DNA of 64,000 bases from Verrucomicrobiota bacterium. Lineage in GTDB: Bacteria > Verrucomicrobiota > Verrucomicrobiia > Limisphaerales > UBA8199. The stretch covers positions 4,167-68,166 of the forward strand of contig JBEKRX010000027.1 of assembly GCA_049518415.1 (NCBI GenBank), read 5' to 3'. Every line of letters starts with the position of its first letter. Within the stretch, counting starts at the first letter, position 1. Made by a program: the position numbers and the translations under genes. Under the pieces are notes generated by a model. The model ran no database searches, was not told the origin of the DNA, and was given only the letters and a program-made list of their open reading frames with translations. Positions 59 to 60,921 of the stretch are shown here, piece by piece.

Positions 59-514
59 ATGTTTGACGAACTCAACGATCTCTATCAGCAGGTGATTCTC
101 GACCATTGCAAGCACCCGCGGAATTTCCATGAGCTGGGCCACCCCACCTGCTCCGCCCAGGGACACAACCCGCTGTGCGGCGATGAGTTGCAGCTCTACC
201 TCGCGCTCGAAGGCGACGTCATCCGGGACATCAGCTTCGTCGGTTCCGGTTGTTGCATCTCCAAGGCCTCGGCCTCCCTGCTCACCGAGGCGGCTAAGGG
301 CAAGACCCGGCGCGAAGTCGAACAGATGTTCGATCAGGTGCACGCCATGGTGACCACCGGCCGGGCCGTGGGGGACATGGGGAAATTGGCGGTCTTCGCC
401 GGCGTGCACAAGTTCCCCGCGCGGGTCAAGTGCGCCATCCTGGCCTGGCACGCCCTCATGGCCGCCATCAAAGGCCAAGGCCAGCCCGTCACGACGGAAA
501 ACCAGGAGACGTAG
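59..514 (+). CDS. sufU: SUF-system Fe-S cluster assembly scaffold, SufU/IscU-like
   Basis: 151-aa ORF with the three conserved Cys motifs NPLCGD, GSGCCISKAS and ARVKCA typical of SufU/IscU. sufT and sufS lie nearby on the same strand. Confidence 0.85.
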   Translation: MFDELNDLYQQVILDHCKHPRNFHELGHPTCSAQGHNPLCGDELQLYLALEGDVIRDISFVGSGCCISKASASLLTEAAKGKTRREVEQMFDQVHAMVTTGRAVGDMGKLAVFAGVHKFPARVKCAILAWHALMAAIKGQGQPVTTENQET

Positions 515-553
515 GAGGATGCTGGCGGTCGCGTCCGGGGATAGGCGGCTTAA

Positions 554-581
554 CCGTTTATGTGGAGCTCCACATAAACGG
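554..581. repeat. Perfect 28-bp palindrome between convergent genes (possible bidirectional terminator or protein-binding site)
   Basis: CCGTTTATGTGGAG followed directly by its reverse complement CTCCACATAAACGG. It is AT-rich relative to its surroundings and has no flanking T-run. Confidence 0.5.
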
Positions 582-619
582 CTTAGTTGCCCGCCCGCCG
601 CTGGTGTGATTGGGAGGGT

Positions 620-1051
620 TTAAAGCGGAACCTCTTCCTTGTCTTTAACGAGACTAAAAATCGCCCTGAAGCTGCTGAAGAATCGGACTTTGTATTTTTG
701 AACGTCCGTGCCGGTCATCGGGTTGCGCGTGAAGACAACGAAGCAACGCTTCCGGAAGCAAGCGCGGTCGGCTGAAAGCTTGTCGATGGTGGCTTCCAAC
801 TGCACAACCGCACGGTGGATGTCCGAGCCCTTCAACTCGACGTAAATCTCCTCTTGAGAGAGCATGTCTGCGAGGCGAACCAGCCAATCGCAACGGGGCC
901 CTTGGGTGATGGCGCAATTGTCCACCTCGACTTGCTCCACGCTGCGCTCCTGGGGGTTTAAAAGATAGAGCGTGGAGGTTCTCCTGCCAGTCAGCGCGAT
1001 CTTCCGGTGCTGCAAAAAAGTGCTGCACTCGCGGCCGTCAGGGCTTTTCAT
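620..1051 (-). CDS. Small (143 aa) PD-(D/E)xK-like putative nuclease, partner of the upstream ATPase
   Basis: In-frame ATG at 1051 is preceded by GGAGGG and overlaps the ATPase stop by 14 nt. Residues CD55W ... YVE72-L-K74G followed by a helix (HRAVVQLEATI) match restriction-endonuclease-like core spacing. The fold assignment is inference only. Confidence 0.55.
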   Translation of the reverse strand: MKSPDGRECSTFLQHRKIALTGRRTSTLYLLNPQERSVEQVEVDNCAITQGPRCDWLVRLADMLSQEEIYVELKGSDIHRAVVQLEATIDKLSADRACFRKRCFVVFTRNPMTGTDVQKYKVRFFSSFRAIFSLVKDKEEVPL

Positions 1052-2327
1052 TTCCCTCCGCGAGCAGTTGATCAAATTCAATTGCGATGTCGTTCGAGAC
1101 CTGGTCGATATAGCTGGCATCGATCAACCCTGTTCCGGGGTCCACGATAGGCATGGCCCTTCCTTCCTCGAGCGCGTAAAAGCAGACCTCGCCGGGGTTG
1201 AAGGAACCGCGGATAATCTTGGGAAGTCGCGCACCGGCGCGCCGGTCTCGCTTCGCATTCGCATCTTTCCAGAGCTTCCCCGCCTGGAGGAGATTGTTGA
1301 AGGACGTCAGTATGTACGGACTGTGAGTCGTCACCACCAGACACAGTTCGTCTTTCCGGCAACGAAAGACCCTGCCGATTAGTTCGACGATCTGTTTCTG
1401 GGTCGACGGAAAGAGGTGCGCCTCGGGTTCTTCAATGTAAAGGGAGCGGTCTCGCCAACCAGGCATTGAGAAGATGAGCGCGAGCAACCGCAGAATGGGC
1501 AAGGCCTCCTGCTGGCCGGAGGATGCCTGGGCTAGTTTTGCCTGGCGTCCATCACCAAACTGAAGGAACTCCTGCCCTTTGGCTCGGCCCAATTCAGCGT
1601 GCAGGATCTCTTTGATGGAAGATCGGATGCCCTGGAAAGCGTCGGGCTTGACCGGGTCGTAAAAGCCTCTTTCGTCCAGGCGCGCCTTGGTCGACTCGAG
1701 CAAAGAGCCGAAGGCGGTCAGGAACGGCTCGGGGCTCTCACCGCCATGAAGCGTGGTGAAGATGCTCGCCTGGACTTGCGAGAAAAAAGCCCGGCCAGCC
1801 GGGATAAACATCTGCTCGCAAGTGGACCAGGGACCCAGGATCTCCTTGGCTTCCTCGTCGTATTCCTGGATCAGTTTACTCCCGACTTCCTCAGAGGCGT
1901 ATTCATCTCCCTGCGTCCGAACTCCGAAAAGCTCGTCTTTCCTACGCTTCAACCTCTCCATCGCGCGCGGATAAAAGTCGCTCCACTCCAAGCTCAGAGC
2001 CTCCTGCCTCGCCGCCGGCATTCCGCAGAACTTCACGCGCACATGTTCGCTCCCGGTCGTGTAGGTGATGTCGAAGTCTGCAACTCCGCCGCTGCCGATG
2101 GGAAAATATCGTTGGAACCGCTCGCAGCACTCGGCGTTGTACTGGCTGCTCTCCCGGTCATGTATTACCGCATGGGGCAGCCGCGAGGCTGTTTCCCGAA
2201 AAAAGTAGAGCAGCTTGGCGATGATGCTCTTGCCAGTGGCTTCCGGGCCGATCAGACCGGTGACGCGACTGACCTCGAGATTCACATCCTCCAGCCCCGC
2301 AAAATTGTTGATCTGAATTCTTTCCAT
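1038..2327 (-). CDS. ABC/SMC-like AAA_15/AAA_21-type ATPase (429 aa)
   Basis: Start chosen at MERIQINNF. Walker A GPEATGKS, signature-like ASSGQQEALP, Walker B SLYIEEPEAHLFP and H-loop VVTTHSPYIL are present. The upstream 94 codons of the ORF look non-coding. Confidence 0.85.
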   Translation of the reverse strand: MERIQINNFAGLEDVNLEVSRVTGLIGPEATGKSIIAKLLYFFRETASRLPHAVIHDRESSQYNAECCERFQRYFPIGSGGVADFDITYTTGSEHVRVKFCGMPAARQEALSLEWSDFYPRAMERLKRRKDELFGVRTQGDEYASEEVGSKLIQEYDEEAKEILGPWSTCEQMFIPAGRAFFSQVQASIFTTLHGGESPEPFLTAFGSLLESTKARLDERGFYDPVKPDAFQGIRSSIKEILHAELGRAKGQEFLQFGDGRQAKLAQASSGQQEALPILRLLALIFSMPGWRDRSLYIEEPEAHLFPSTQKQIVELIGRVFRCRKDELCLVVTTHSPYILTSFNNLLQAGKLWKDANAKRDRRAGARLPKIIRGSFNPGEVCFYALEEGRAMPIVDPGTGLIDASYIDQVSNDIAIEFDQLLAEGNEKP

Positions 2328-2535
2328 GCTGGCGCAAATGCCGGTTGTGCGTAACCTGCCCCAATTTAGCCAAAGCCCCTGGGGATGCGCAACTCGGATC
2401 TCGCGCCCCGCGCGCCGGCGGCCCGGCGCTGGGGCAAGGAGCTTCGTCCCGACTTGCGCCAGGCCGCTTGGCGTGGGAAGGTTTGCAGGGTCAGGCGCGA
2501 CAGTTTGGCCCCAATCGGCTATAGTTTTTGTGGTT

Positions 2536-3084
2536 ATGAGTGGCAACGAGAGCATCACCCTGGCCCGGGACGTGGAGGCGGCCATGATTCCCATTGGGTC
2601 CAAAGTCACGCTCCAAAAGGGCGAGCAGGCCTACCTGACCCAGTCGCTGGGCGGCGCCTACACCGTGATCGTCAATGGGAACCTGTTTCGCATCGAAGGC
2701 AAAGACGCCGACGCGCTGGGCTTGGAGCCGGCGGCGGCGCCGGTGAGCGTCGGCGCGCCGCTGAGCCAGGAACAGCTCGAAAAGGAAATCTGGAACCGGT
2801 TGCGGTCCTGCTATGACCCGGAAATCCCGGTGAACATTGTCGACCTGGGCCTGATTTACGATTGCCACCTCTCGCCGCTGGGGGCGGCGAGCTATCGCGT
2901 GGACGTGAAGATGACGCTCACGGCACCCGGCTGCGGCATGGGCCCGATGCTGGCGCAGGACGTGCAAAACCGCTTGCTCGGGCTGGAGGGCGTCGACGAC
3001 GTCGCCGTCGAGCTGGTTTGGGAGCCGCCGTGGAACCAGGCGATGATGACTGAAGCGGCCAGGTTGCAGTTGGGATTGATGTGA
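2536..3084 (+). CDS. sufT: Fe-S assembly SUF protein SufT (long form with DUF59/MIP18 domain)
   Basis: Start at MSGNESI. DUF59 motifs YDPEIPVNIVDLGLIY and MTLTAPGCGMG are present. The stop lies 2 nt before sufS. Confidence 0.8.
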   Translation: MSGNESITLARDVEAAMIPIGSKVTLQKGEQAYLTQSLGGAYTVIVNGNLFRIEGKDADALGLEPAAAPVSVGAPLSQEQLEKEIWNRLRSCYDPEIPVNIVDLGLIYDCHLSPLGAASYRVDVKMTLTAPGCGMGPMLAQDVQNRLLGLEGVDDVAVELVWEPPWNQAMMTEAARLQLGLM

Positions 3085-3085
3085 G

Positions 3086-4342
3086 ATGCCCCCCTCCACC
3101 GCCATTCGAGCCCAGACCCCGATGAACTGGTCCTCCTTGCGGGCCGATTTCCCGATTCTCGACCAGAAAGTCCATGGCTGGCCGCTGGTCTATTTCGACA
3201 ACGCCGCCACGACCCAAAAGCCGCGGCCGGTGCTCGAGGCCCTGCGCCGCTACTACGAGTGCGACAACGCCAACGTGCACCGCGGCATCCATGCCTTGAG
3301 CAATCGCGCCACCGCCGCCTTCGAGGCCGCCCGCGCCCGCGCCGCCGCCTTTATCCATGCCCGCAGCGCCGAGGAGATCGTTTTCACCCGCGGCACCACT
3401 GAGGGCATCAACCTGGTGGCCCAGTCCTGGGGCGCCAAATACCTCCGGGCCGGCGACCGCCTCCTGCTCACCGAGATGGAGCACCACAGCAACCTCGTCC
3501 CCTGGCAACTGCTGGCCGAGCGCACCGGGGCCGGGCTGGTCTTCCTGCCGGTGACCGGGGACATGGGCCTGCTGGACCTGAACCGGTTGGACGAAGTCCT
3601 CACCAAAGAGGTGAAGCTGTTCGCCATGACGCACATATCCAACTCGCTGGGCACCATCAACCCGGTGGCGGAGCTCTGCGCGCGGGCGCGCAAGCTGGGC
3701 ATCACTACGCTGGTCGATGCCGCCCAGAGCGCCGGGCACCGCCCGCTGGACGTGCAGGAGCTGGGCTGCGATTTCCTGGCCTTTTCCGGCCACAAGATGT
3801 GCGGCCCCACGGGGATCGGGGTCTTGTATGGACGGCAGGAACTGCTGGAGGGCCTGCCGCCCTACCAGGGCGGCGGCGAGATGATCCTGAGCGTCGATTT
3901 CCATCACAGCACCTGGAAACACGCCCCTCACAAATTCGAGGCCGGCACGCCCGACATCGCCGGCGCCGTCGGATTGCACGCCGCCATGGATTACCTGGAC
4001 CACATCGGCCGGCAGCACATTGCCGGGCACGACCAGGAACTGGGGGCCTACGCCTACGCCCGGCTCGCGCGCCTGAAGGGCATCCGCCTGTTCGGCCCGC
4101 ACCTCGGGCGCGCCGGTCTGGTCAGTTTCCTGCTCGAGGGCGTGCATGCCCACGACGTGGTGACCGTGGCCGACCAGCGCGGCGTCGCCTTGCGCGGCGG
4201 CCACCACTGCAACCAACCCCTGATGCGCAAACTCGGCGTCGAGTCCACCGCCCGCGCCAGTTTTTATTTCTATAACACCACCCAGGAAATCGACCGCTTC
4301 GTCGAGGTCCTTGCCGAAATCCAGAAATTCTTCGGGGCGTAA
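3086..4342 (+). CDS. sufS: Cysteine desulfurase SufS (class V aminotransferase)
   Basis: PLP-lysine motif SGHKMCGPTGIGVLYG and catalytic-Cys motif RGGHHCNQPLM are present. Length is 418 aa. Confidence 0.9.
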   Translation: MPPSTAIRAQTPMNWSSLRADFPILDQKVHGWPLVYFDNAATTQKPRPVLEALRRYYECDNANVHRGIHALSNRATAAFEAARARAAAFIHARSAEEIVFTRGTTEGINLVAQSWGAKYLRAGDRLLLTEMEHHSNLVPWQLLAERTGAGLVFLPVTGDMGLLDLNRLDEVLTKEVKLFAMTHISNSLGTINPVAELCARARKLGITTLVDAAQSAGHRPLDVQELGCDFLAFSGHKMCGPTGIGVLYGRQELLEGLPPYQGGGEMILSVDFHHSTWKHAPHKFEAGTPDIAGAVGLHAAMDYLDHIGRQHIAGHDQELGAYAYARLARLKGIRLFGPHLGRAGLVSFLLEGVHAHDVVTVADQRGVALRGGHHCNQPLMRKLGVESTARASFYFYNTTQEIDRFVEVLAEIQKFFGA

Positions 4343-4393
4343 CCTGTTCGAGTGTTTCTGCCTTTGGAGCGTGTCCGAGAATTGCCCTTTTTT

Positions 4394-4435
4394 TGGTTCT
4401 TCCGAAAAGTTGGTGTCTGGGCGCGGCGTTTTGGC
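4394..4435 (+). repeat. 42-bp repeat core, copy 1 (half element)
   Basis: TGGTTCTTCCGAAAAGTTGGTGTCTGGGCGCGGCGTTTTGGC is the exact reverse complement of 33346-33387. It lies about 50 nt after the sufS stop. Confidence 0.8.
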
Positions 4436-4528
4436 AGCCTGAGGCCTTGGTCGAGACTTGCTCCGCCAGGCCCGCTGTAACCAAGGGGCCAAGGATTGGC
4501 AACAACCCCAAGGGTTGTCAGAAAGTAG

Positions 4529-4569
4529 CCGGTGGTCGTTCTGCGGCGACAGGGCAGAACGACCACCGG
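4529..4569. repeat. Perfect 16-bp-stem hairpin (REP-like)
   Basis: CCGGTGGTCGTTCTGC, a 9-nt loop, then GCAGAACGACCACCGG. It lies about 65 nt beyond the stop of the IS200-like relic and has no T-run. Confidence 0.7.
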
Positions 4570-4632
4570 AAAGTCGCGCCGGGGTTCGCCCGCACCCCGC
4601 CAGGGGTGCCAGAACTCTCGGTGGGCCGCCAC

Positions 4633-4830
4633 CTACACCAGGTATTGGGGATCATACTTTACGCCGTTCCTTTCGAGCAACCGCTTCAGTTCGTCCACGA
4701 AGGAGAGCGCTCTATGGTGTGCCTCCTGGCCGGCAATGTAGCGGCGCAACGCCAGCCCATGGGTCCAGCTCGCGCTAAAAATCGAGTAGCCCTCCTGCCA
4801 GGAGAAGCCGCGCTCGAAGTTCGTTGCGCC
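4633..4830 (-). pseudogene. C-terminal relic of an IS200/RAYT-like (Y1/HUH) transposase
   Basis: Only the last ~60 aa (FSWQEGYSIFSAS...RRYIAGQEAHHRALSFVDELKRLLERNGVKYDPQYL) resemble the family C-terminus. The upstream part of the 209-aa ORF shows no family resemblance. Confidence 0.55.
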
Positions 4831-4923: not shown

Positions 4924-5221
4924 CCCCCGGGCGGCAGGTCTTTTCGCTCCAGCCTTCGTTGCTCGCTCCTCATCCCGACAGGTCGGGAACGGGTATGCTC
5001 GTCGCTCGCGCCTCGGCTGGAGCGAAAATCCCTGGCCGCGAACGTCACCGTATTTATGACACGCAGTACTAAGCCGGGGTCTGGCAGTCGAAGGCGCCGC
5101 CGAGCCGACCATCGCCGCCCAATGGATTTCCAAACCGTGTGCGAAAAAATGAGAGGCCCCCTTGCCGTGCTCTGCCCCGGCTTGACCGCAACCGGCGTTC
5201 AGTCTATTAGAAACAACGGCT

Positions 5222-5560
5222 GTGCCAACATACGAATACATCTGCGAAAAGTGCGGACACACTTTTGAGAAGTTTCAATCCATGTCGGCTGAACCGTTGC
5301 GTGTCTGCCTGGCCAAGGTCTGCCCCCGGAAACCGTGGGGCAAGGGCAAAGTCAAACGAACCATCACCGGCGGCGCGAACCTCCTCTTCAAAGGCAGCGG
5401 CTTTTACGCCACCGATTATCGCTCCGAACAGTACAGACAAGCCGCCAGCAAAGAAGCCGCCCCGGCATCCTCCTCGGCCGGCGAAAGCAAATCCAGCGCT
5501 GAGACCAAGCCCGCGGCCAAATCCGAAACCAAACCAACCTCAACTCCAAAAACAGCATAG
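5222..5560 (+). CDS. FmdB-family zinc-ribbon protein (CxxC_CxxC_SSSS)
   Basis: MPTYEYICEKCGHTFE with a second Cys pair (RVCLAKVCP), then FKGSGFYATDY and a low-complexity tail. Confidence 0.8.
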   Translation: MPTYEYICEKCGHTFEKFQSMSAEPLRVCLAKVCPRKPWGKGKVKRTITGGANLLFKGSGFYATDYRSEQYRQAASKEAAPASSSAGESKSSAETKPAAKSETKPTSTPKTA

Positions 5561-5901
5561 ATTATGTCTTGCCGGCCGGGCCTGACAAAAACACCAGCTC
5601 AAGGAATCGAGCCTTCAGACTGGCCCGCCCTGCTGCCCCGGAAACGCAACCCTTTCCGGAGCCGGCGGCGGCAGCCTTTGCGTTTGGCGATTCGCGCCTT
5701 TTTCGGTCCTGGGCCTTCGGGCTGCGGCCCGCGCCCTGTCGGAGCCGGACTTCGGGTTCCAGTACACCGGCGGGGAAGTTGCCTTACTTTGGTCGCCGCA
5801 GTTGGTTCCCGATTTTGTCGCGATTCCCCCTCGCCCCCTGCCGGCGCCGGGCGCGGCGCGGCAGGGCCGCAGGGGGTCAGGGAGAGGAGATCAACGGCTT
5901 C

Positions 5902-12953: not shown

Positions 12954-14156
12954 TCACTTGGGCAGCGAATCGGAACAAGGAACGGGCGACACGGGTGCGG
13001 GGCTGGTTTGGGCAGCCCGCCGGGACGGCGCCAATGTGCCCTCGGGCAGGCTGGCGCGGGCCGGAGCGGCCCGCCGCTCCCAGAGTCTCTTTCCGAGCCT
13101 GCTGCCCTCCCGCTCGATTAACCGGTAAGACAGCCACGACAGCCCGGCAATCGCCCCGGCGGTCGCGACGCCGGCGATGAGGCTGGGGGCAAAACGTCCA
13201 AACCACCCGGAGAGCATTGATAACAGGGGCTGGTGCCACAAATAGACCGAGTAACTGATCAGCCCGGTAAACGCCAGAAAGCTAAGCCCGAGGTTGCGAC
13301 TGGACCGCATGGAGACCATCAAATCCAGGACCACCGCCGAAACGGCAGCCGCCAGAGAAAAGCTAAACACCGTCAAAGGCTTGAACACGGTGCTGAAAAC
13401 GAAGGCGGGCGCCAGGACCGCCAGCCAGACGGCGTGCTTGGTGAAGGCCCTTCGCTGCTGAGCCGTGCGCTCCGCGATATAAGCCCCCAGGGTCCAGTCA
13501 AACCAGGTCATGATGGGCGAATTGAAGGCAGGGGCGCCGACGCGTTCCGGCAGTCCGCAGAGAGCCACCGCCATCAGGCGCCACAACATGCTGGCCACGA
13601 AAGTAATCGCCAGGCAGCCTCCCATCCCCCAACGCCGGCGGAGCAGCAACACCACCGGGAACAAAAGATAAAGCTGGACCTCGGCGGCGATGCTCCAGAA
13701 AGCGGGATTGATTCCGAAAAAGGAAGCGTGGTGAAAATTATGGACCAGCAGCACGTGCGCCAGCAATTGCTTGACGCCCCCGGAGGTGGTCAAGTCCAGC
13801 CGTTCCAAGCAGCAAAAGGCAACCAGCGCGACCAGGTAGGCGGGATAAATCCGCCAAAACCGGTGCCAGAAGAACTGGGCGTTGGTGAAGCGCGGGGAGC
13901 GCAGGCAAGACGTATGGATGCAAAATCCGCTGAGCACGAAAAACAGGGCCACCCCCGCCCACCCGAAGGAAGCGGGATAAAACACCAGGAAATGCTCGCT
14001 CGGGGGGGCGTGAAAGTCTTGCCAATTGCCGTTCCAGGGGAGGCAGAACCCGTACAAGCGCCCAAAGGTATGGTAGAGCACCACCGACAGGATGGCCACC
14101 CCGCGAAGGATGTCGGCCCCGAAAAAGCACTTCGGATCATGTATCGAACTGCGCAT
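12954..14156 (-). CDS. Acyltransferase family 3 membrane protein (O-acyltransferase)
   Basis: Multi-TM protein with [16 protein letters not shown] near the N-terminus, typical of acyltransferase_3. Confidence 0.8.
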
Positions 14157-14244
14157 AGGCGGAGCGGTCGTCTGACGCGCCGCAGTCTAGCCTGCCGGCC
14201 TGGACTGTGGCAACCCGGAAACGAGCTTCCGGGCAAATCCCCAA

Positions 14245-15798
14245 TCACACCTTCCGGGGTGGCGCCTCAGGCCTGGCGGCCAGCCAGTCTTGTCGCGCGC
14301 GTCGAAACCGGCGGAATATCGCCAGCAAATCCCCTCGGAAAAGTCCCGTAAAGCAGGCGGTCGCCCCCACGGCTGCCGCACCTTCAGCCAGCAGCAAGCG
14401 TTCCGAGGTCGCGGTTTGGCGAAAGGCAAAGAATTCCCCCGCCAACAGTGCCGAAAAGATGAACAAAACCATTCCGTGGTCTCGAACGAGCCGCCCCAGG
14501 CTGAGGTTGAGCAGCTTCGGCGCTTTGAGCGTGCAGTACCAAAAACCGAGGCTGACCAGATTATAAAGGACCGTGAAGGCAATGTAACCGTTCAAGCCGT
14601 GCCACTGGGCGCCCGCAATGCCGGCAATCAGTCCCAAAACCGTGTCCGCCGAGGCCACCGCCGCCAACCCCTTCATGCGCTTGGCCAGCACAAAAGCGCA
14701 GGCCAGACAATGGCTCCAGACCTGAAGGACCACAAAAAGGGCAAAGAACAAATCGAAGGTCTTGCCGGCGTAAAGTTCCTGTTTGCCGAAGCTGAACACA
14801 AACCACCGGTTCAGGGCGAAACAACACGTCATCGCCAGCGCCGCCAGGCCCATGGTGAGCCGGAACAGCCGGCGAAACTCCTCGGTGAGCGGTGCGGTCT
14901 CTTGCTTGGCCCAGAGAATCTGCCAACGCGGCAGGAAGGCGTCAAAAGGCCGCCAGATACATTGCATCAGCAGCATGGGCACCCGGCTGCACATCGTGAA
15001 ACTGGCCACCGCTCCCAGCCCCACAATCTTGGTGATCACTGGCGCCTGGCTCACTAGGGCGACCTGGACGGCGATGCCGATGACGAACACCGCCAGACTG
15101 AAGCCGAACAACTCGCGCGTGTGATGCCACGGGATGTCGCGGAACGAAACCCGAAAACGATTCGGTCCCCGCGACACGGCCAGCAACGTCAATCCTGAAC
15201 TGACCAACATCTGCACGGCGGCGGAGAAACCGTAGGCCAGGGTGCTCCAACCCAGTCTGAGGAAGAGGTAAAACGTCAATAATCCAAACCAACTGCCGGT
15301 CACCGCGCCGACGGACACCCAATAACTCCGGTTTTGTGCCCCCAGGATTCCGGGAAACAGCCGCAACGGAAACATCAGCGCGTTCAAAAACAGCAGCATC
15401 AGCCAAAGCCGCCGGGCTTCCACCAGCAACGGCGCCGGAATATTGAACCACTGAAGGATGGGGTCGGTCAGGAGCACGCCCGCCCCCAGAATCAGCCCCG
15501 CCTGAATCAAGAGCACGGCCAAAAAGAGGTTGAACCAGCCGTTCCAAGTCCGCTCGTCGCCCTTGTGAATCGGATCGGTCAGCAGCCGACCCAGGGAATT
15601 GGTCACCCCAAAGTCCAGCAAAAGCACGTAGCCCAGCGATTGGGAAATGAACGACCAAAGACCAAAACGCTCGTTGTCCAGGAAAGTGAGGGCGATGGGG
15701 ATGGCCACCAATTGTGTCAACACCAGGCTCCCCATCTGAACGTAGGAAGCCGCCCCGGTTAGAATGGTGTTGCGCAGTCGCATCAAAGCATCCGGCAT
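14245..15798 (-). CDS. Oligosaccharide/polysaccharide flippase (Wzx-like, MOP superfamily)
   Basis: 517 aa with about 12-14 TM helices. The N-terminus is of the polysaccharide-biosynthesis-protein type. It lies next to GT2 and acyltransferase genes. Confidence 0.7.
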   Translation of the reverse strand: MPDALMRLRNTILTGAASYVQMGSLVLTQLVAIPIALTFLDNERFGLWSFISQSLGYVLLLDFGVTNSLGRLLTDPIHKGDERTWNGWFNLFLAVLLIQAGLILGAGVLLTDPILQWFNIPAPLLVEARRLWLMLLFLNALMFPLRLFPGILGAQNRSYWVSVGAVTGSWFGLLTFYLFLRLGWSTLAYGFSAAVQMLVSSGLTLLAVSRGPNRFRVSFRDIPWHHTRELFGFSLAVFVIGIAVQVALVSQAPVITKIVGLGAVASFTMCSRVPMLLMQCIWRPFDAFLPRWQILWAKQETAPLTEEFRRLFRLTMGLAALAMTCCFALNRWFVFSFGKQELYAGKTFDLFFALFVVLQVWSHCLACAFVLAKRMKGLAAVASADTVLGLIAGIAGAQWHGLNGYIAFTVLYNLVSLGFWYCTLKAPKLLNLSLGRLVRDHGMVLFIFSALLAGEFFAFRQTATSERLLLAEGAAAVGATACFTGLFRGDLLAIFRRFRRARQDWLAARPEAPPRKV

Positions 15799-16021
15799 GG
15801 CCCGGCCTCAGTCAGACAAAACCTCGTAACGCTGCGTTCAATAGGCGCAATGTTGCCGGCAGCCAAAAAGACCCTGCTTGAAACCGTCCAAGCCCCCACC
15901 CGACAGTTTCAGCGCCGGCAGCCCAGGACGGGGATTTCTTGCCAGCCAAGAGCACACCCACGCTTAAGAAATCGGCTGCTTGACGCGGCGGAGCAATAAT
16001 CCTGAGAAACCGCCAACCTCG

Positions 16022-16990
16022 TCATCGTGCCGGAAGACTTTTCCCCGCCCCCCAACCCGTCCGCTTGCGGAGGCCGTTGATCAAGTACGGCCCCAAATCA
16101 CTGGTTAGGTCGGCCGGTGTATAGACCTGGCGGTAAAGACGCCAGGCGCGCTTGGCATTGCCCCATTTGCCGCGACGCAATTGCTGGAACAACAGGCCGG
16201 AAACCGGACGAATCACCGCGGCGGCCATCGTTTGGGTGTCAAACCCCAAGGCCCGCCATTTTTCTCGTTCCTCACTCAGCAAGTCGGCCCGCAATTCCGC
16301 GGCCTCCATCGCCCAAGTGAAGCTGGCGCTTTGCAGGCGCGAGGCATTCTGAGAGTGTCTCCGATACCTCAGGGTGGCTAAAGGATCGTAGAGAATCGGC
16401 CCGCCCGCGTAGAGGGCGAGCTTCATCAAAAAATGCCAGTCCATTAAAAGCGAGTAGCGGGTGTCGAACCCAAGGCCTGCCTCCTTGGCTCGCCGCAAGC
16501 GCAAAAGGGCCGAATGTCCGTTGATCGGATTGCCAGGAAATACCCTGGCCAGGAAAGCAGCGACCGGTTCTTCCCGGGGAACGTCCTGGGTGTAGGTCCA
16601 GGTCTTGGCCCCCGTCCCGTCGATGATTTGGACCGCTCCATGAACAAACGTGGTGTTGGGGAAATCGTGAAGCAAAGCAGACTTCTTTTCCAGGTGAGTC
16701 GGCTCAAATACGTCGTCCGCCCCCAACACGCACCCCAGTTCGCCCCGCGAACGCTCAAAAAGAAATTGCCAATTCCCGGCGGCACTGGTGGTCCTTTCCT
16801 GGCAATAGAGCCGGATGCGGGGGTCGTGGTAGCTCCTGATCACTTCCAAAGTCTTGTCCCGCGAGGCATTCTCGGAGATGACTAACTCCCAATCAGTGAA
16901 GGTCTGCGCCAGGACACTCTCAATCGCCTGGCCAACGTAGCGTTCGGCCTGGTAGGCCGGAAGCAGGACAGAAATCTGCGGTGAACTCAT
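16022..16990 (-). CDS. Glycosyltransferase family 2
   Basis: ISVLLPAYQAERYVGQAIESVLAQTFTDWELVISENASRDKT and GADDVF (DxD-like) motifs are present. Confidence 0.85.
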   Translation of the reverse strand: MSSPQISVLLPAYQAERYVGQAIESVLAQTFTDWELVISENASRDKTLEVIRSYHDPRIRLYCQERTTSAAGNWQFLFERSRGELGCVLGADDVFEPTHLEKKSALLHDFPNTTFVHGAVQIIDGTGAKTWTYTQDVPREEPVAAFLARVFPGNPINGHSALLRLRRAKEAGLGFDTRYSLLMDWHFLMKLALYAGGPILYDPLATLRYRRHSQNASRLQSASFTWAMEAAELRADLLSEEREKWRALGFDTQTMAAAVIRPVSGLLFQQLRRGKWGNAKRAWRLYRQVYTPADLTSDLGPYLINGLRKRTGWGAGKSLPAR

Positions 16991-59010: not shown

Positions 59011-59063
59011 GGCCCGCCTGCCGGCCGGCAGGCGGTGGGGAGAGGCTCCCGCTGCTCTCCTGT

Positions 59064-59088: not shown

Positions 59089-60921
59089 GCTAACCTAACT
59101 TCCCGCCCCATTTGATGAAAATGGCTGAAAACCTGTGTTTTCACCCGAAAATGTAGCAAGTATTATTTCATTATTGTGCTTGACATCGCCGTGTTATATC
59201 GTTACTCTGTAGCGCGTATGTTCGTCCAGGCCACCCAGTGCAAGCACCGCCGCCACACCTACCTCACCTACCTGGTCCGGGAGTCCTTCCGTAGCCCCAA
59301 AGGTCCACGCTCCCGCACCATTTGCAATATCACCGCCCTGCCGCCAGACACCCGACAGCTCATTGCCCAATCCCTGCGCGGCCAGAGCTTTGTCCCCAGC
59401 GATGAGCTTGAACTGGCCGAGGCCCTGAGCTTTGGCGGCCTGGCCGTTTTGCGCCAGGCCTGGGAGCAGCTTGAGCTGGAGCGGCTGTTCCAGGGCTTGA
59501 GCGATCCGCGCGCCGTCGGCCTGCTCAAAGCGATGATTTTTGGCCGCATCCTCTTTCCCAGTGCCAAGCTGGCTTTAGCCGACCACGCCCGGGGCACGCT
59601 GCTGGCCGCCGCTTGCACCCTGGATCAAGCCACCGAGGATTTCGATGAAGACGACTTGTATGCGGCGATGGATCAGTTGACCGGGCGGTGGGTGGGCATG
59701 GAGAAGCAGCTCTACAGCCAAAGCTTTCCCCAAGGCGTCTCGCTGGTGCTCTATGATCTGACCAGCGTGTATTTTGAGGGCGAGGGCCCCGCCGGCATGA
59801 GCCGTTACGGCCACAGCCGCGACCATCGCTCCGACCGTCCGCAAGTGATTTTGGCGGTGGCCGCCGATGCCCAGGGAGTGCCACTCCATCTGGAGGTTCT
59901 GCGCGGCAATCGCGGCGACACGACCACCTTGCAGGGACTGCTGGCTGCCTTGCGGCGGCGCTTCGGGATTAAGGAAGCAGTCTTTGTTTTTGATGGCGGC
60001 ATGAGCAGCAAGGTCAATCTGGAAGCGGTCGAAACCCTTAAGCTCAAATACGTAACCCGGTTGAGCGCGGCTACGCTGGACCAATTGCTGGAGCAATTAC
60101 CCGCCGACCAGTCGCCCGAACTGTGGGACCGCACCCAGGTGATGGAGATCGTGCGGGCAGGCAAACGCTACGTAATCGCGGGCGGGCCTTGGCGCCAGCA
60201 ACGGGACCAGCAACGACGGCAGGCCCGGCTGGCCAAAGCCGAAGCAAAACTGCAGCGGATCGCGGCGGTGAAGCGTAAGAAAGTCGATGCGCAAAAGCTG
60301 GCCAGCCAGGTGGGCCGGGCGCTGCAGCGGCTCAAGGCCCACAAGTATTTCGAGTATTCGGTGGACCCGCAGGGCAAGCTACAGTGGAGTCGTCGTGCCG
60401 ACTCGATCCGGGCTGAAACGATTCGTGACGGTCTCTACCTGCTGGCCACCAACACCAGTGCCCAGCAAGTTCCGGCCACCGGAGTGCTGGCTCATTACAA
60501 AAATCTTCTGGAAGTGGAGGATGCGTTTTGCCACTTGAAATCTTACCTGGGCGTGCGCCCAGTGTTTCACCGCCGACCGGATCGGGTGCGCAATCATGTG
60601 CGGATTTGTTTTATCGCTTACTGGCTGAGCGCCAAACTGGAACTCCAATGGCGCCAAAAAGACCAAACCATCGAAATTCATAATCTGCTCCGACAACTCC
60701 AATCCATCCGCTTGGGCCGCTTGGAACTCGGGGGCAAGGCTTTCAAAACGCTGCTAACGCAGGTGCCCAAGGATATGAATGCCACGCTCGACAAACTGGG
60801 ATTGCTGCCGCTCTTTGCAGCTCCACCAGCTTGGGCAACCGCCAATTGTAGCAAGTGAACGAAAGGTCGAAGCTTGCAAGCCAACAACTTACGCGCGAGT
60901 CGAGGGGAAGTCAGGCTAAGC
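59089..60921 (+). mobile_element. IS1634/IS4-family insertion sequence (~1.83 kb)
   Basis: Imperfect terminal inverted repeats GCTAACCTAACTTCCC (59089-59104) and GGGAAGTCAGGCTAAGC (60905-60921), about 14 of 17 matching. A single DDE transposase ORF is present. Composition is AT-richer than the flanks. I found no clear target-site duplication. Confidence 0.65.
59176..60858 (+). CDS. IS1634/IS4-family DDE transposase
   Basis: 560 aa. LVLYDLTSVYFEGEG, GHSRDHRSDRPQVILAVAADAQGVPLHLEVLRGNRGDTTTL, FVFDGGMSS and a C-terminal YKNLLEVEDAFCHLKS region match the IS1634-type pattern. Confidence 0.8.
   Translation: MLDIAVLYRYSVARMFVQATQCKHRRHTYLTYLVRESFRSPKGPRSRTICNITALPPDTRQLIAQSLRGQSFVPSDELELAEALSFGGLAVLRQAWEQLELERLFQGLSDPRAVGLLKAMIFGRILFPSAKLALADHARGTLLAAACTLDQATEDFDEDDLYAAMDQLTGRWVGMEKQLYSQSFPQGVSLVLYDLTSVYFEGEGPAGMSRYGHSRDHRSDRPQVILAVAADAQGVPLHLEVLRGNRGDTTTLQGLLAALRRRFGIKEAVFVFDGGMSSKVNLEAVETLKLKYVTRLSAATLDQLLEQLPADQSPELWDRTQVMEIVRAGKRYVIAGGPWRQQRDQQRRQARLAKAEAKLQRIAAVKRKKVDAQKLASQVGRALQRLKAHKYFEYSVDPQGKLQWSRRADSIRAETIRDGLYLLATNTSAQQVPATGVLAHYKNLLEVEDAFCHLKSYLGVRPVFHRRPDRVRNHVRICFIAYWLSAKLELQWRQKDQTIEIHNLLRQLQSIRLGRLELGGKAFKTLLTQVPKDMNATLDKLGLLPLFAAPPAWATANCSK

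Follow-up and report, generated by a model that had tools for sequence, protein, structure and literature searches.

Modules that combine an ABC-type ATPase with a nuclease are a major theme in bacterial immunity, with Septu, PARIS, Gabija, OLD and HEC-02 as examples. The described system that matches the locus considered here is PDC-M29, a computational candidate. It is listed as cassette CAS_00123, with the family order FAM_00005>>FAM_02872 and the entry 'Assign as candidate PDC-M29' (Payne et al. 2024, supplement, bioRxiv 10.1101/2024.01.29.577857). PDC-M29 was predicted via 'guilt-by-embedding' in BREX, DISARM or type I restriction-modification (RM) loci, for which one embedded instance per family suffices, and is one of 145 candidates given as untested (Payne et al. 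2024, bioRxiv 10.1101/2024.01.29.577857). The same work reports HEC-02, an ABC ATPase with a NERD-family protein, as experimentally confirmed, and places HEC-01A and PDC-M29A in the same ATPase family, FAM_00005 (bioRxiv 10.1101/2024.01.29.577857). We found no published report of an experimental test, fold or mechanism of PDC-M29.

The window, that is the whole stretch of 64,000 nucleotides that was analysed, carries two minus-strand genes between a sufU-like gene and a sufT-sufS-like pair. A preliminary description had noted this arrangement and the open reading frames (ORFs) and Pfam matches bear it out. The features of the locus are as follows.

59-514, + strand: sufU-like gene (NifU_N), an ORF with a Pfam NifU_N match at 7.1e-21; left flank of the insertion site, convergent with the small gene
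515-619, no strand: 105-nt spacer separating the convergent sufU gene and small gene, with a hairpin at 544-591
620-1051, - strand: small partner, 143 residues, PDC-M29B-like, ATG at 1051, stop included at 620
1038-2327, - strand: ABC-type ATPase, 429 residues, PDC-M29A-like, ATG at 2327, stop included at 1038
1040-2160, - strand: replaced segment of the ATPase gene, from about codon 55 to the stop, from sliding DNA identity against the relative L013
2328-2535, no strand: divergent spacer from the ATPase start to the sufT start, from the sequence and the empty-site comparison
2536-3084, + strand: sufT-like gene (FeS_assembly_P), an ORF with a Pfam FeS_assembly_P match at 1.2e-14; with sufS (2536-4342 together) the right flank of the insertion site
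3086-4342, + strand: sufS-like gene (Aminotran_5), an ORF with a Pfam Aminotran_5 match at 3e-144

Both minus-strand starts are backed by homologues. The relatives of the small protein (n = 85) are nearly all 143-144 residues long and those of the ATPase 417-441 residues; because these lengths fit proteins of 143 and 429 residues, longer mechanical ORFs of 166 and 523 residues were rejected. The ATG of the small gene at position 1051 is preceded by GGAGGG and, as first read from the sequence, the gene overlaps the end of the ATPase gene by 14 nt. The same overlap occurs in close relatives (L013, L015-L020 and L108-L111) and suggests, as its best explanation, that the small gene is coupled to the ATPase gene.

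The composition of the two-gene segment is foreign to its surroundings. From 515 to 2510 the GC content is 58.5%, compared with a window mean of 63.8% (sd 2.0), the lowest value in the 64-kb window; three of 621 sliding 2-kb windows are as low in GC and all three overlap the cassette. The cassette genes have a GC3 of 0.71-0.72, as opposed to 0.86-0.88 in the suf genes. The impression, gained by eye, that the cassette is less GC-rich than its suf flanks is therefore confirmed by both measures. The junction itself provides an independent comparison. The cassette is present in none of 80 related suf loci, defined as those holding sufT relatives; sufU directly adjoins sufT in most of them, and in almost all of the closest loci (sufT 73-86% identical) the gap between the two is about 45-110 nt. 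Because GC and GC3 are low and the sufU-sufT junctions of relatives are empty, the segment from approximately 515 to approximately 2510 is a horizontally acquired two-gene cassette, lying antisense in a short sufU-sufT spacer. The occurrence of the pair at unrelated sites across phyla, described below, also supports the acquisition that had been proposed. The locus is of value as a case of a clean natural insertion, dated, in a well-conserved operon with many empty sites to compare.

Two or three close relatives (L013, L014 and L110) retain the cassette between sufU and sufT, and the small protein has three invariant cysteines, both of which would suit an accessory of the suf iron-sulfur assembly pathway. 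Such a role is extremely improbable and is refuted as far as comparative genomics can go. The cassette is missing from all 80 related suf loci, suf genes are absent within 8 kb of the pair in all 12 genome loci that have it, and the genes run antisense to suf with a foreign GC3. Other small modules are found at the same position elsewhere: the sufU-sufT gap in locus L038 holds a RelB-like antitoxin with a ParE toxin, and that in L041 an Unstab_antitox addiction component.

The spacer on the sufU side contains a stable, imperfect hairpin (544-591) with a folding energy near -30 kcal/mol; the two strands give z-scores of -5.7 and -7.0. Its core at 554-581 is a perfect palindrome of 28 nt, CCGTTTATGTGGAG followed by CTCCACATAAACGG, which is unique and the longest perfect palindrome in the window, and which had no counterpart in 100 shuffles. 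No T-run terminator was called in the 515-619 spacer, and the hairpin spacer is probably a two-way transcript end or an insulator. The palindrome had been taken to mark the left boundary of the cassette. It is indeed perfect, but it is not a general boundary mark: it is missing from other cassette loci, the copy in L013 and L014 is imperfect, and in the closest relative there are two uncompensated mismatches. The homology of the window to an unlinked copy of the cassette (L108) ends at position 622, and to judge from these alignments the hairpin spacer is lineage-specific and lies outside the mobile core.

On the sufT side the left part of the spacer, up to about 2497-2510, belongs to the insertion by sequence comparison, and the cassette promoter is presumably located there. 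To its right, AATCGGCTATAGT at about 2511-2525 is a conserved native box just upstream of sufT; at the empty sites of several relatives AATCGGCTATA[TC]T occurs some 10-20 nt ahead of the sufT ATG. There is one promoter-like match, GCGACA-17-TATAGT, at 2497-2525 on the + strand.

The larger protein displays the features of the ABC ATPase superfamily. Pfam AAA_15 (1.5e-20) and AAA_21 (1.1e-13) match it and the four motifs recognized at the outset are present on an ABC fold: Walker A GPEATGKS (G27-S34, with K33), a signature-like ASSGQQ (S269-E274), Walker B LYIEEPEAHLFP (E299-E302) and the H-loop TTHSPYIL (T333-S336). Their key residues are invariant across 40 homologues, namely G27, G32, K33 and S34, then S269, S270, G271, Q273 and E274, then E299, E300, P301, E302 and H304, and finally T333, T334, H335 and S336; Q172 is nearly invariant. 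The AF2 model has a pLDDT of 85.4. The solved structures nearest to it in a Foldseek search are PtuA (7.6e-11), Rad50 and AriA (both about 1e-9, AriA at 1.3e-9), each with a probability of 1.00. The predicted fold supports a place for the protein in the ABC ATPase neighbourhood of PtuA, AriA and Rad50, in keeping with the OLD/PtuA/AriA-type relationship first suggested for it. The model shows neither the long coiled coil nor the zinc hook of Rad50/SbcC. A conservation profile identifies helical inserts at approximately residues 101-160 and 221-240 as the least conserved parts of the ATPase, and these variable inserts are the obvious candidates for a sensing surface in a protein that we consider, by analogy, a putative sensor and regulator.

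Is the small protein a nuclease? No family model in Pfam, NCBIfam or PHROG matches it and a comparison with the sequences of solved structures in the PDB gave no match. The D55...E72-L-K74 motif to which the preliminary description drew attention is present, and D55, E72 and K74 do not vary among 36 close or 63 distant homologues; L73 is likewise fixed in the close set and is conserved at 90% or more in the distant set. The residues listed as invariant are C9, N32, D44, C54, D55, E72, K74 and Q84; D55, E72, K74 and Q84 remain so over divergent sequences of 24-65% identity, and the beta-rich N-terminal part carries the invariant C9, C46 and C54. In the AF2 model (pLDDT 90.5) D55 is placed just before strand 56-61, E72-x-K74 ends strand 66-72, and Q84 is in helix 78-92. 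This predicted strand-strand-helix topology fits a PD-(D/E)xK core, in which core strand 2 begins with a conserved acidic residue and core strand 3 carries (D/E)xK; the model has no counterpart of the first helix that such cores usually have. Approximately 30 of the top 50 Foldseek matches in the PDB are PD-(D/E)xK nucleases (Mus81, FokI, BspD6I, BsmI, NucS/EndoMS, PaqCI, HamA and BamHI) and none is significant, the best E-value being 0.011 and the TM-scores at most 0.43, with similar results from a viral library. Scattered weak, sub-threshold profile matches in Pfam and PADLOC are to Cas4, the NERD-like HEC-02B, Vsr, HSDR_N_2, DUF2726 and NOV_C, and neither library yields a TOPRIM, HNH or AriB match. 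The earlier suggestion of a minimal PD-(D/E)xK-type effector is upheld with respect to the D...ExK residues, the topology and the distinction from TOPRIM and HNH partners; the structural search fell short of significance.

Alternatively the small protein might be an adaptor, or a DNA- or ligand-binding subunit, in which a D...ExK-like motif arose by chance, with the ATPase doing the work, for example in SMC/Rad50-like DNA clamping or remodelling. The Rad50-like fold of the ATPase would agree with this, as would the want of a significant Foldseek match or of a sequence link to any solved nuclease, the missing first helix and the beta-rich N-terminal part with its cysteines. We judge it improbable all the same. 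The invariance of D55, E72, K74 and Q84 at such low identities, on strand positions of the metal site, is hard to explain without catalysis, and nuclease folds dominate the weak structural and profile matches. A putative minimal PD-(D/E)xK nuclease effector is our preferred description. The family comprises 2,128 clusters at 50% identity and represents a sizeable unannotated, nuclease-like group.

The preliminary description could not match the pair to any named defence system, a statement that must now be withdrawn. The ATPase matches PDC-M29A (PDLC04562) with an E-value of 1.5e-20, its best specific-system model, and the match includes the C-terminal extension, residues 298-422. The small protein matches PDC-M29B (PDLC04563) at 1.8e-5 over residues 31-129, a weak match and its sole one in PADLOC. 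Across the two families PDC-M29A matches 40 of 40 ATPase homologues (best 8.6e-31) and PDC-M29B 55 of 63 small proteins (best 1.3e-11), a second model, PDLC04564, matching 11. No other specific-system model in PADLOC-DB matches both proteins. The PADLOC 'AriA' models give the window ATPase its top scores and appear to be generic AAA_15/AAA_21 domain models because their lengths are those of Pfam AAA_15 (373 versus 374) and AAA_21 (304). A match to an already described system had been named beforehand as an outcome that would count against a new one, and this is what was found, though PDC-M29 is a computational candidate.

The PDC-M29 gene order, A then B, adjacent and on the same strand, is seen in the window and in 24 of 24 cassette loci. 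Embedding in BREX, DISARM or type I RM loci, the basis on which the candidate was predicted, is not seen in the contexts inspected. This does not exclude membership because the source paper requires one embedded instance per family. The assignment consists of modest matches to the HMM library together with gene order; on that footing the cassette is, at the level of sequence, a divergent member of candidate PDC-M29.

The co-occurrence of the two families, proposed as a check, proved strict. In each of the 24 cassette loci checked with an HMM search the small gene is immediately preceded by a same-strand ATPase gene, and the arrangement recurs in the called-gene tables of six further loci (L105-L107 and L109-L111). 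The 24 loci derive from Verrucomicrobiota, Planctomycetaceae, Hymenobacteraceae, Acidobacteria and cyanobacteria, and at long range the two proteins co-diverge, to about 40% identity each. The chromosomal site differs by lineage, with the pair found at unrelated positions between secA and an S41 peptidase gene and near accD, COX genes and coaBC. Wherever neighbours could be read the cassette stands alone among housekeeping genes. Among the contexts examined there was no surrounding defence island and no nearby integrase, and those inspected held no adjoining RM or BREX genes; the search did not find the cassette on plasmids or in IMG/VR viral contigs. The sole 'phage' record with the cassette is an unverified faecal contig of 4.7 kb.

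Within Microcoleus the module is kept across many strains, in a cluster of 101 members at 90% identity. Conservation of that kind, the setting among housekeeping genes and the presence of Rad50 among the best fold matches might suggest a housekeeping accessory of DNA repair or recombination, in the style of SbcCD or Rad50-Mre11. The distribution is, however, patchy, with no copy in the 80 closest suf loci; the composition is foreign to the window, the site is different in each lineage, the ATPase has neither the coiled coil nor the hook of Rad50/SbcC, and its alleles are swapped between near-identical genomes. We regard a repair function as most unlikely.

The allele swapping is evident on comparison with L013, the closest relative at the same locus. 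In sliding comparisons the small gene has 95-100% DNA identity to that of the window and the first 55 or so ATPase codons 82-90%, but over approximately 1040-2160 identity is 50-88%, mostly 60-80%, before it returns to 90-95% in the right spacer. Between close relatives dS is 0.65 in the ATPase gene, as against 0.10 in sufU and 0.011 in the small gene. Recombination has exchanged the ATPase allele between close relatives, from about codon 55 to the stop. In addition, the identities of ATPase and partner are incongruent (65% and 95% between the window and L013, 84% and 76% between the window and L108), so that the alleles of the two genes reassort. Replacement and reassortment of this type resemble the behaviour of an arms-race locus. 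Close relatives in which the ATPase allele differs while the putative nuclease gene next to it is almost the same offer a useful comparison.

A selfish addiction module, similar to a toxin-antitoxin (TA) pair and without a real anti-phage role, must also be considered. The nuclease would be the toxin, the ATPase would restrain it, and the pair would persist since its loss is harmful. The toxin-antitoxin components in the same sufU-sufT gap of L038 and L041 fit this picture, as do the solitary placement among housekeeping genes away from any integrase, the Pfam label of AAA_21 ('putative AbiEii toxin, Type IV TA system' domain) and a translational coupling suited to fixed stoichiometry. We think it possible, though unlikely. 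An ATPase of 429 residues with all its catalytic motifs invariant is far beyond the needs of an antitoxin, the way in which ATPase alleles are replaced and reassorted points to selection for new specificities, and the related PDC-M29 family came to notice through its embedding in restriction or BREX-type loci. Both ideas may hold at once, since many abortive-infection systems act as TA modules. Should a defence function fail to materialize, the locus would still show small selfish cassettes repeatedly colonizing one suf intergenic spacer.

Taken as a whole the locus is best explained as an acquired pair of an ABC ATPase and a PD-(D/E)xK-like protein, a member of PDC-M29 with a defence mechanism resembling those of Septu and PARIS, and we place the probability of this reading at roughly 60%. 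A defence function is plausible by analogy. By comparison with PtuA-PtuB of Septu and AriA-AriB of PARIS, the ATPase would oligomerize and keep the small nuclease in an inactive complex. The fast-evolving, recombining helical inserts may then sense a phage-derived cue, upon which a change in ATP binding or hydrolysis would release or activate the nuclease, and the activated enzyme would cut nucleic acid and stop the infection or the infected cell. If such a function were demonstrated the cassette would constitute a new compact defence system, possibly with a new small nuclease.

A broader proposal is more tentative and we incline against it at present. The small protein might found a large family (over 2,000 clusters at 50% identity) whose members would be minimal PD-(D/E)xK nucleases that bear cysteines and are obligate partners of a dedicated ABC ATPase; together the two would form a widespread anti-phage system. 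It would move as a bare two-gene unit with no mobility gene, landing in short housekeeping spacers, and would gain new specificities when homologous recombination exchanges entire ATPase (sensor) alleles whilst the nuclease stays constant. If true this would be a modular sensor-exchange strategy, to our knowledge one not yet described in ABC-ATPase defence systems.

How does the cassette compare with the known systems? AbiL and HEC-01 combine an AAA_21 ATPase with an RloB/TOPRIM-like partner, and the AbiLi and HEC-01A models match part of the ATPase family; the partner here has D...ExK in place of a TOPRIM-like domain, and the PDC-M29 models give the window proteins better scores. HEC-02, an ABC ATPase with a separate effector of the PD-(D/E)xK superfamily (NERD), is the closest analogue in domain logic reported as validated. 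However, the HEC-02A models are matched at 1e-10 or better by only 10-11 of 40 ATPase homologues, one of 63 small proteins touches HEC-02B (E 0.0039), and the effector here is much smaller and of a separate family. Membership of Gabija/OLD is ruled out, the 429-residue ATPase having no TOPRIM and no adjacent helicase gene; the GajA matches cover about 45 residues around Walker B.

PARIS (AriA ABC ATPase with the TOPRIM protein AriB) shares an AAA_15/AAA_21-type ATPase and a strong fold match to AriA, and the mechanism proposed here is modelled on its ATPase scaffold, which frees a nuclease once a phage protein is sensed. The profile match to AriA is, though, limited to the generic C-terminal ABC half, residues 232-340, and the partner is not a TOPRIM/DUF4435 protein; PARIS membership is ruled out, with no TOPRIM or AriB match to the small protein in Pfam or PADLOC. 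Septu (PtuA ABC ATPase with the HNH protein PtuB, including the effector modules of retrons Ec78, Ec83 and Eco7) provides the best structural match to the ATPase and the same two-gene operon, ATPase then nuclease, putative in our case; an ATPase oligomer that restrains a small nuclease is the likely common logic. Identities to the window ATPase are nevertheless 12-17% with TM-scores of 0.35-0.47, the score on the NCBIfam PtuA model is 26 bits against a cut-off of 500, and the partner has a D...ExK core instead of HNH. Septu membership is ruled out by the missing HNH match and the unreached PtuA cut-off.

PDC-M29 differs in that the matches are remote, the window clade (Verrucomicrobiota-type metagenome sequences and cyanobacteria) being far from the RefSeq sequences behind the models, and in that the instances here are solo insertions among housekeeping genes. 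It has in common with the cassette a layout of two genes, the first for an ABC ATPase and the second for a small protein that lacks a Pfam domain.

The start of the window falls inside a suf operon. Open reading frames (ORFs) and Pfam matches define the following genes, with two on the minus strand separating sufU from sufT-sufS:

59-514, plus strand, sufU-like gene (NifU_N; ORF and Pfam)
620-1051, minus strand, small protein of 143 aa (ATG 1051, stop 620; ORF), between sufU and sufT
1038-2327, minus strand, ATPase of 429 aa (ATG 2327, stop 1038; ORF), between sufU and sufT
2536-3084, plus strand, sufT-like gene (FeS_assembly_P/DUF59; ORF and Pfam)
3086-4342, plus strand, sufS-like gene (class-V aminotransferase; ORF and Pfam)

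The ATG of the small gene is preceded by GGAGGG and the gene overlaps the end of the ATPase gene by 14 nt. This start fits the lengths of homologues (n = 85), nearly all of 143-144 aa; homologues of the ATPase range from 417 to 441 aa. Because these lengths are so tightly distributed a 166-aa form of the small gene (ATG 1120) and a 523-aa form of the ATPase (GTG 2609) were ruled out. The GC content of the cassette is 58.5%, the lowest of any 2-kb stretch in the window (mean 63.8%, sd 2.0), and GC3 is 0.71-0.72 in the cassette genes compared to 0.86-0.88 in the flanking suf genes. The observation made in the preliminary description is confirmed, since the ORFs, the palindrome, the lower GC and the quoted sequence motifs, all found in the window proteins, check out. 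No tRNA genes or Rfam families were found in the window.

In a second low-GC stretch (12954-16990, about 59%), an ORF of 517 aa that Pfam does not match accompanies genes for an Acyl_transf_3 acyltransferase and a family-2 glycosyltransferase; this is probably a region of variable surface-polysaccharide genes. A low-GC patch contains the gene for a 560-aa DDE_Tnp_1 transposase (59176-60858, plus strand), with a perfect 22-nt palindrome, CCGCCTGCCGGCCGGCAGGCGG, just 5′ of it at 59014-59035 and a full-length RecQ helicase gene (61088-63274, minus strand) adjoining. At 4633-4740 (minus strand), 3′ of sufS, the C-terminus of a 209-aa ORF (...EAHHRALSFVDELKRLLERNGVKYDPQYLV) resembles that of IS200-like Y1 transposases. 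The match to Pfam Y1_Tnp (positions 90-121) is below threshold at E 0.16, and this end of the ORF may represent a degraded transposase remnant.

Is the cassette native to the suf locus? A metagenome scan with the sufT protein as query gave 80 loci, and neither cassette gene is present in any of them. In almost all of the closest empty loci (sufT 73-86% and sufU 70-86% identical) sufU, sufT and sufS are contiguous and sufU lies only about 45-110 nt from sufT. The horizontal acquisition proposed previously is supported by this comparison of the junction in relatives and by the foreign GC and GC3. That the two genes serve as an accessory to the suf system is exceedingly improbable, being effectively refuted by the empty sites.

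Several empty spacers (L021, L022, L024, L025, L026, L029 and L030) end in a conserved box, AATCGGCTATA[TC]T, some 10-20 nt 5′ of the sufT ATG. The window retains this box as AATCGGCTATAGT at approximately 2511-2525 and the foreign DNA therefore extends from about 515 to about 2497-2510, noting that similarities between the junction and the empty spacers are short and too weak for base-exact boundaries. Nothing convincing in the way of a target-site duplication or terminal repeats was identified among direct and inverted repeats at the insertion. The box overlaps the only sigma-70-like match of the region (GCGACA-17-TATAGT, 2497-2525), suggesting that sufT-sufS may have an internal promoter of its own with a very short leader. 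Such a promoter would explain tolerance of an antisense insertion.

The sufU-sufT spacer is a recurrent insertion hotspot. In L038, a relative's locus that lacks the cassette, genes for a RelB-like antitoxin and a ParE toxin together with a DUF7674 gene occupy the gap (442-1423), and in L041, also without the cassette, an Unstab_antitox addiction component (5123-5607) is placed just 5′ of sufT. The gaps of L043 and L056 are likewise enlarged. Two contigs, L110 (1-1506) and L111 (1-705), carry sufBD, sufU, the small gene and the ATPase gene with no sufT following. Their homology to the window breaks off about 94 nt 5′ of the ATPase start (window 2421). The place of sufT is taken by an ORF of 405 aa or more that Pfam does not match, a different right flank.

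Twelve cassette loci were obtained in a scan of species-representative genomes, from Verrucomicrobiota (including Limisphaerales), Planctomycetaceae, Hymenobacteraceae and Acidobacteria, and exact-protein look-ups added metagenomic contigs and cyanobacterial ones, for example of Microcoleus. The co-occurrence of the two families is strict: the ATPase gene immediately precedes the small gene, both on one strand, in 24 of 24 loci checked by HMM search, and called-gene tables display the same layout in six more (L105-L107 and L109-L111). In distant comparisons the divergence of one protein keeps pace with that of the other, with about 40% identity in each, while the GC content of the cassette ranges from 0.34 to 0.60 across hosts. 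The pair is obligate and moves as a unit. In the 12 genome loci no suf gene lies within 8 kb, the suf position being common only to the closest relatives L013, L014 and L110, and the neighbours vary by lineage (secA and an S41 peptidase gene; accD; cytochrome oxidase genes; coaBC; a P-type ATPase gene and opcA). No integrase or transposase adjoins the cassette in any chromosomal locus. It was not found in plasmid collections, nor in IMG/VR viral contigs searched with an alignment of 36 close small-protein homologues. The only match in phage collections, L101 (MT838931.1, ‘UNVERIFIED: Bacteriophage sp.’, 4.7 kb, human faeces), is of uncertain viral nature; it carries the pair at 3159-4647 (minus strand) and an rve-family integrase at 279-1163, the only such neighbour.

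Some copies may be decaying. The ATPase is split over two frames in two MAG loci, L001 and L002, by a frameshift or an assembly error, and the truncated small gene of L106 (9281-9481) is called as only 66 aa. In Microcoleus vaginatus (L104, 14823-16605) another two-gene unit, encoding a 367-aa protein with no Pfam match and then a DUF3226 protein, is located about 3 kb 3′ of the cassette.

The cassette loci inspected gave no sign of a defence-island context. The solo contexts of the cassette, and the toxin and antitoxin company at the sufU-sufT hotspot, favour the main rival to a defence function, namely that this is purely an addiction module of the toxin-antitoxin kind. We regard that as unlikely although deserving of consideration, and it is compatible with defence by abortive infection so the two are not exclusive.

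The preliminary description took a perfect 28-nt palindrome to mark the left boundary of the cassette. The palindrome is real: it occurs at 554-581 in single copy, is the longest perfect one in 64 kb and forms the core of an imperfect hairpin (544-591, approximately -30 kcal/mol, z -5.7 and -7.0 for the two strands). The role assigned to it does not hold. Unique in the window, missing at other cassette loci and degenerate in L013, the palindrome was rejected both as an end of the cassette and as a repeated element. At other loci the small gene has no such hairpin spacer 3′ of it, and the copy in the nearest relative shows two mismatches that are uncompensated. Homology to an unlinked copy of the cassette, L108, covers only 622-2346, essentially both ORFs, and the spacer lies outside the mobile core. 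The hairpin is read as a local transcript end or insulator between convergent genes.

The ATPase is matched by Pfam AAA_15 and AAA_21. Across 40 homologues the residues of the ABC motifs are invariant in Walker A (G27, G32, K33, S34), the signature (S269, S270, G271, Q273, E274), Walker B (E299, E300, P301, E302, H304) and the H-loop (T333, T334, H335, S336), and on this basis an active enzyme is predicted. The AlphaFold model (pLDDT 85.4) presents an ABC ATPase with helical inserts. Conservation reaches its minimum within the inserts (residues 101-160 and 221-240), and the C-terminal extension (381-420) is well conserved. The best fold neighbours in the PDB are PtuA (Septu; retron Ec78/Ec83/Eco7 effector complexes; 7.6e-11), Rad50 and AriA of PARIS (1.3e-9), with sequence identities of only 12-17% and TM-scores of 0.35-0.47. 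That the pair acts as an accessory to DNA repair is considered very unlikely.

No family in Pfam, NCBIfam or PHROG covers the small protein, and no solved structure matches it in sequence; its cyanobacterial relatives are labelled ‘hypothetical protein’ in NCBI records. Its own family is large. An exhaustive profile search retrieved 2,128 representative clusters at E ≤1e-3, 916 of them at ≤1e-10; the best 150 of the 2,128 are mostly of 132-169 aa, with about ten shorter fragments. The D...ExK arrangement proposed earlier is upheld, with Asp55, Glu72 and Lys74 invariant, together with Cys9, Asn32, Asp44, Cys54 and Gln84, in 63 sequences sharing 24-65% identity with the window protein. Cys46, Leu73 and Gly75 are near-invariant in the same set. 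In the AlphaFold model (pLDDT 90.5, pTM 0.88) Asp55 starts a strand (56-61) and Glu72-x-Lys74 ends the next (66-72); Gln84 is in the following helix, after which comes strand-helix-strand as in the PD-(D/E)xK core. In place of the first helix typical of this core there is an N-terminal β meander. The topology thus fits the restriction-endonuclease-like core suggested previously; the structural matches are not significant. About 30 of the top 50 Foldseek matches in the PDB are PD-(D/E)xK nucleases, including Mus81, FokI, Nt.BspD6I, BsmI, NucS/EndoMS, PaqCI, HamA, BamHI and EcoT38I, none of them significant (best E 0.011, TM ≤0.43). A fold search of the viral library BFVD gave the same weak trend and no significant match, and we use both searches as a trend only. 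Scattered profile matches below threshold in the family also go to superfamily members (Cas4, HEC-02B/NERD, Vsr, HSDR_N_2, DUF2726 and NOV_C). The best reading is a predicted minimal PD-(D/E)xK nuclease, resting mainly on the invariant residues and the topology rather than a significant structural match. The alternative, a partner that is not a nuclease, we think quite unlikely.

The invariant or near-invariant Cys9, Cys46 and Cys54, with Asn32 and Asp44, stand outside D...ExK, and the three cysteines may constitute a metal site.

Comparison with L013, a close relative's copy of the same sufBD-sufU-cassette-sufT locus, gives DNA identities of 96.7% for sufU, 98.1% for the small gene and 93.5% for both the right spacer and sufT, as opposed to 75.9% for the ATPase gene (protein 65%). 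The drop is sharp, running from the ATPase stop (about 1040) to near codon 55 (about 2160). The ATPase dS is 0.65, against 0.10 for sufU and 0.011 for the small gene. Positive selection was set aside as the cause because synonymous divergence is also very high (dN/dS 0.36), and replacement of the ATPase allele by recombination, rather than fast change in place, fits the sequences better. The window ATPase is closest to that of L108 (84%) where the small partners are only 76% identical, yet relative to L013 and L110 the ATPases are 65-66% and the partners 95-96% identical. Alleles of both genes therefore reassort, which fits a variable sensor with a constant effector.

About seven non-synonymous differences and a single synonymous one separate the two copies of the small gene (620-1051; L013 1715-2146), with dN/dS of about 2 and a dS ten-fold below that of sufU. 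These counts are too small to interpret, yet they hint that the segment was recently swept or transferred.

We favour a defence-type ATPase-nuclease pair, with a probability of roughly 60%. By analogy with Septu and PARIS, an oligomer of the ATPase would sequester the small nuclease, the variable inserts might detect a phage cue, and ATP turnover would control whether the nuclease is released, or activated, to act on nucleic acid of the phage or the host.

How does the cassette relate to catalogued systems? The top match of the ATPase in PADLOC-DB is an ‘AriA’ model, PDLC02979, of 373 positions (Pfam AAA_15 has 374); another AriA model equals AAA_21 in length (304 positions each). Given these lengths both appear to be generic AAA_15/AAA_21 domain models. 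The next match is PDC-M29A (1.5e-20), and the sole match of the small protein is PDC-M29B (1.8e-5). PDC-M29A matches 40 of 40 ATPase homologues (best 8.6e-31) and PDC-M29B 55 of 63 relatives of the small protein (best 1.3e-11). The earlier view that no named defence system corresponds must be abandoned: judged by these profile matches, the cassette belongs, as a divergent member, to PDC-M29, a candidate known from computational prediction. Payne et al. 2024 (bioRxiv 10.1101/2024.01.29.577857) list it in their supplement as cassette CAS_00123 (FAM_00005>>FAM_02872, leading count 110). It is one of 145 ‘phage defence candidates’ that derive from genes lying within BREX, DISARM or type I RM loci and that the authors call untested. 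We found no mention of PDC-M29 in the main text of papers, it is missing from two studies that test PDC candidates, and no functional report on any family member was found.

The kind of cassette is therefore already catalogued, as a prediction only. The partner family is large and unannotated, and with its empty sites, swapped sensor alleles and insertion hotspot the locus amounts to a natural experiment of unusual clarity. The architecture is a familiar theme, and the proposal of a foreign pair that combines an ATPase with a nuclease-like effector of neither TOPRIM nor HNH type is supported, there being no HNH or TOPRIM matches. Septu pairs its ATPase with an HNH protein, which the cassette lacks, and the score against PtuA falls well short of the threshold; PARIS employs a TOPRIM partner, also lacking here, and Gabija and OLD have a fused TOPRIM, Gabija with a helicase besides, neither of which is present. 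The nearest analogue in domain logic reported as validated is HEC-02, an ABC ATPase with a NERD protein, though of a different family.
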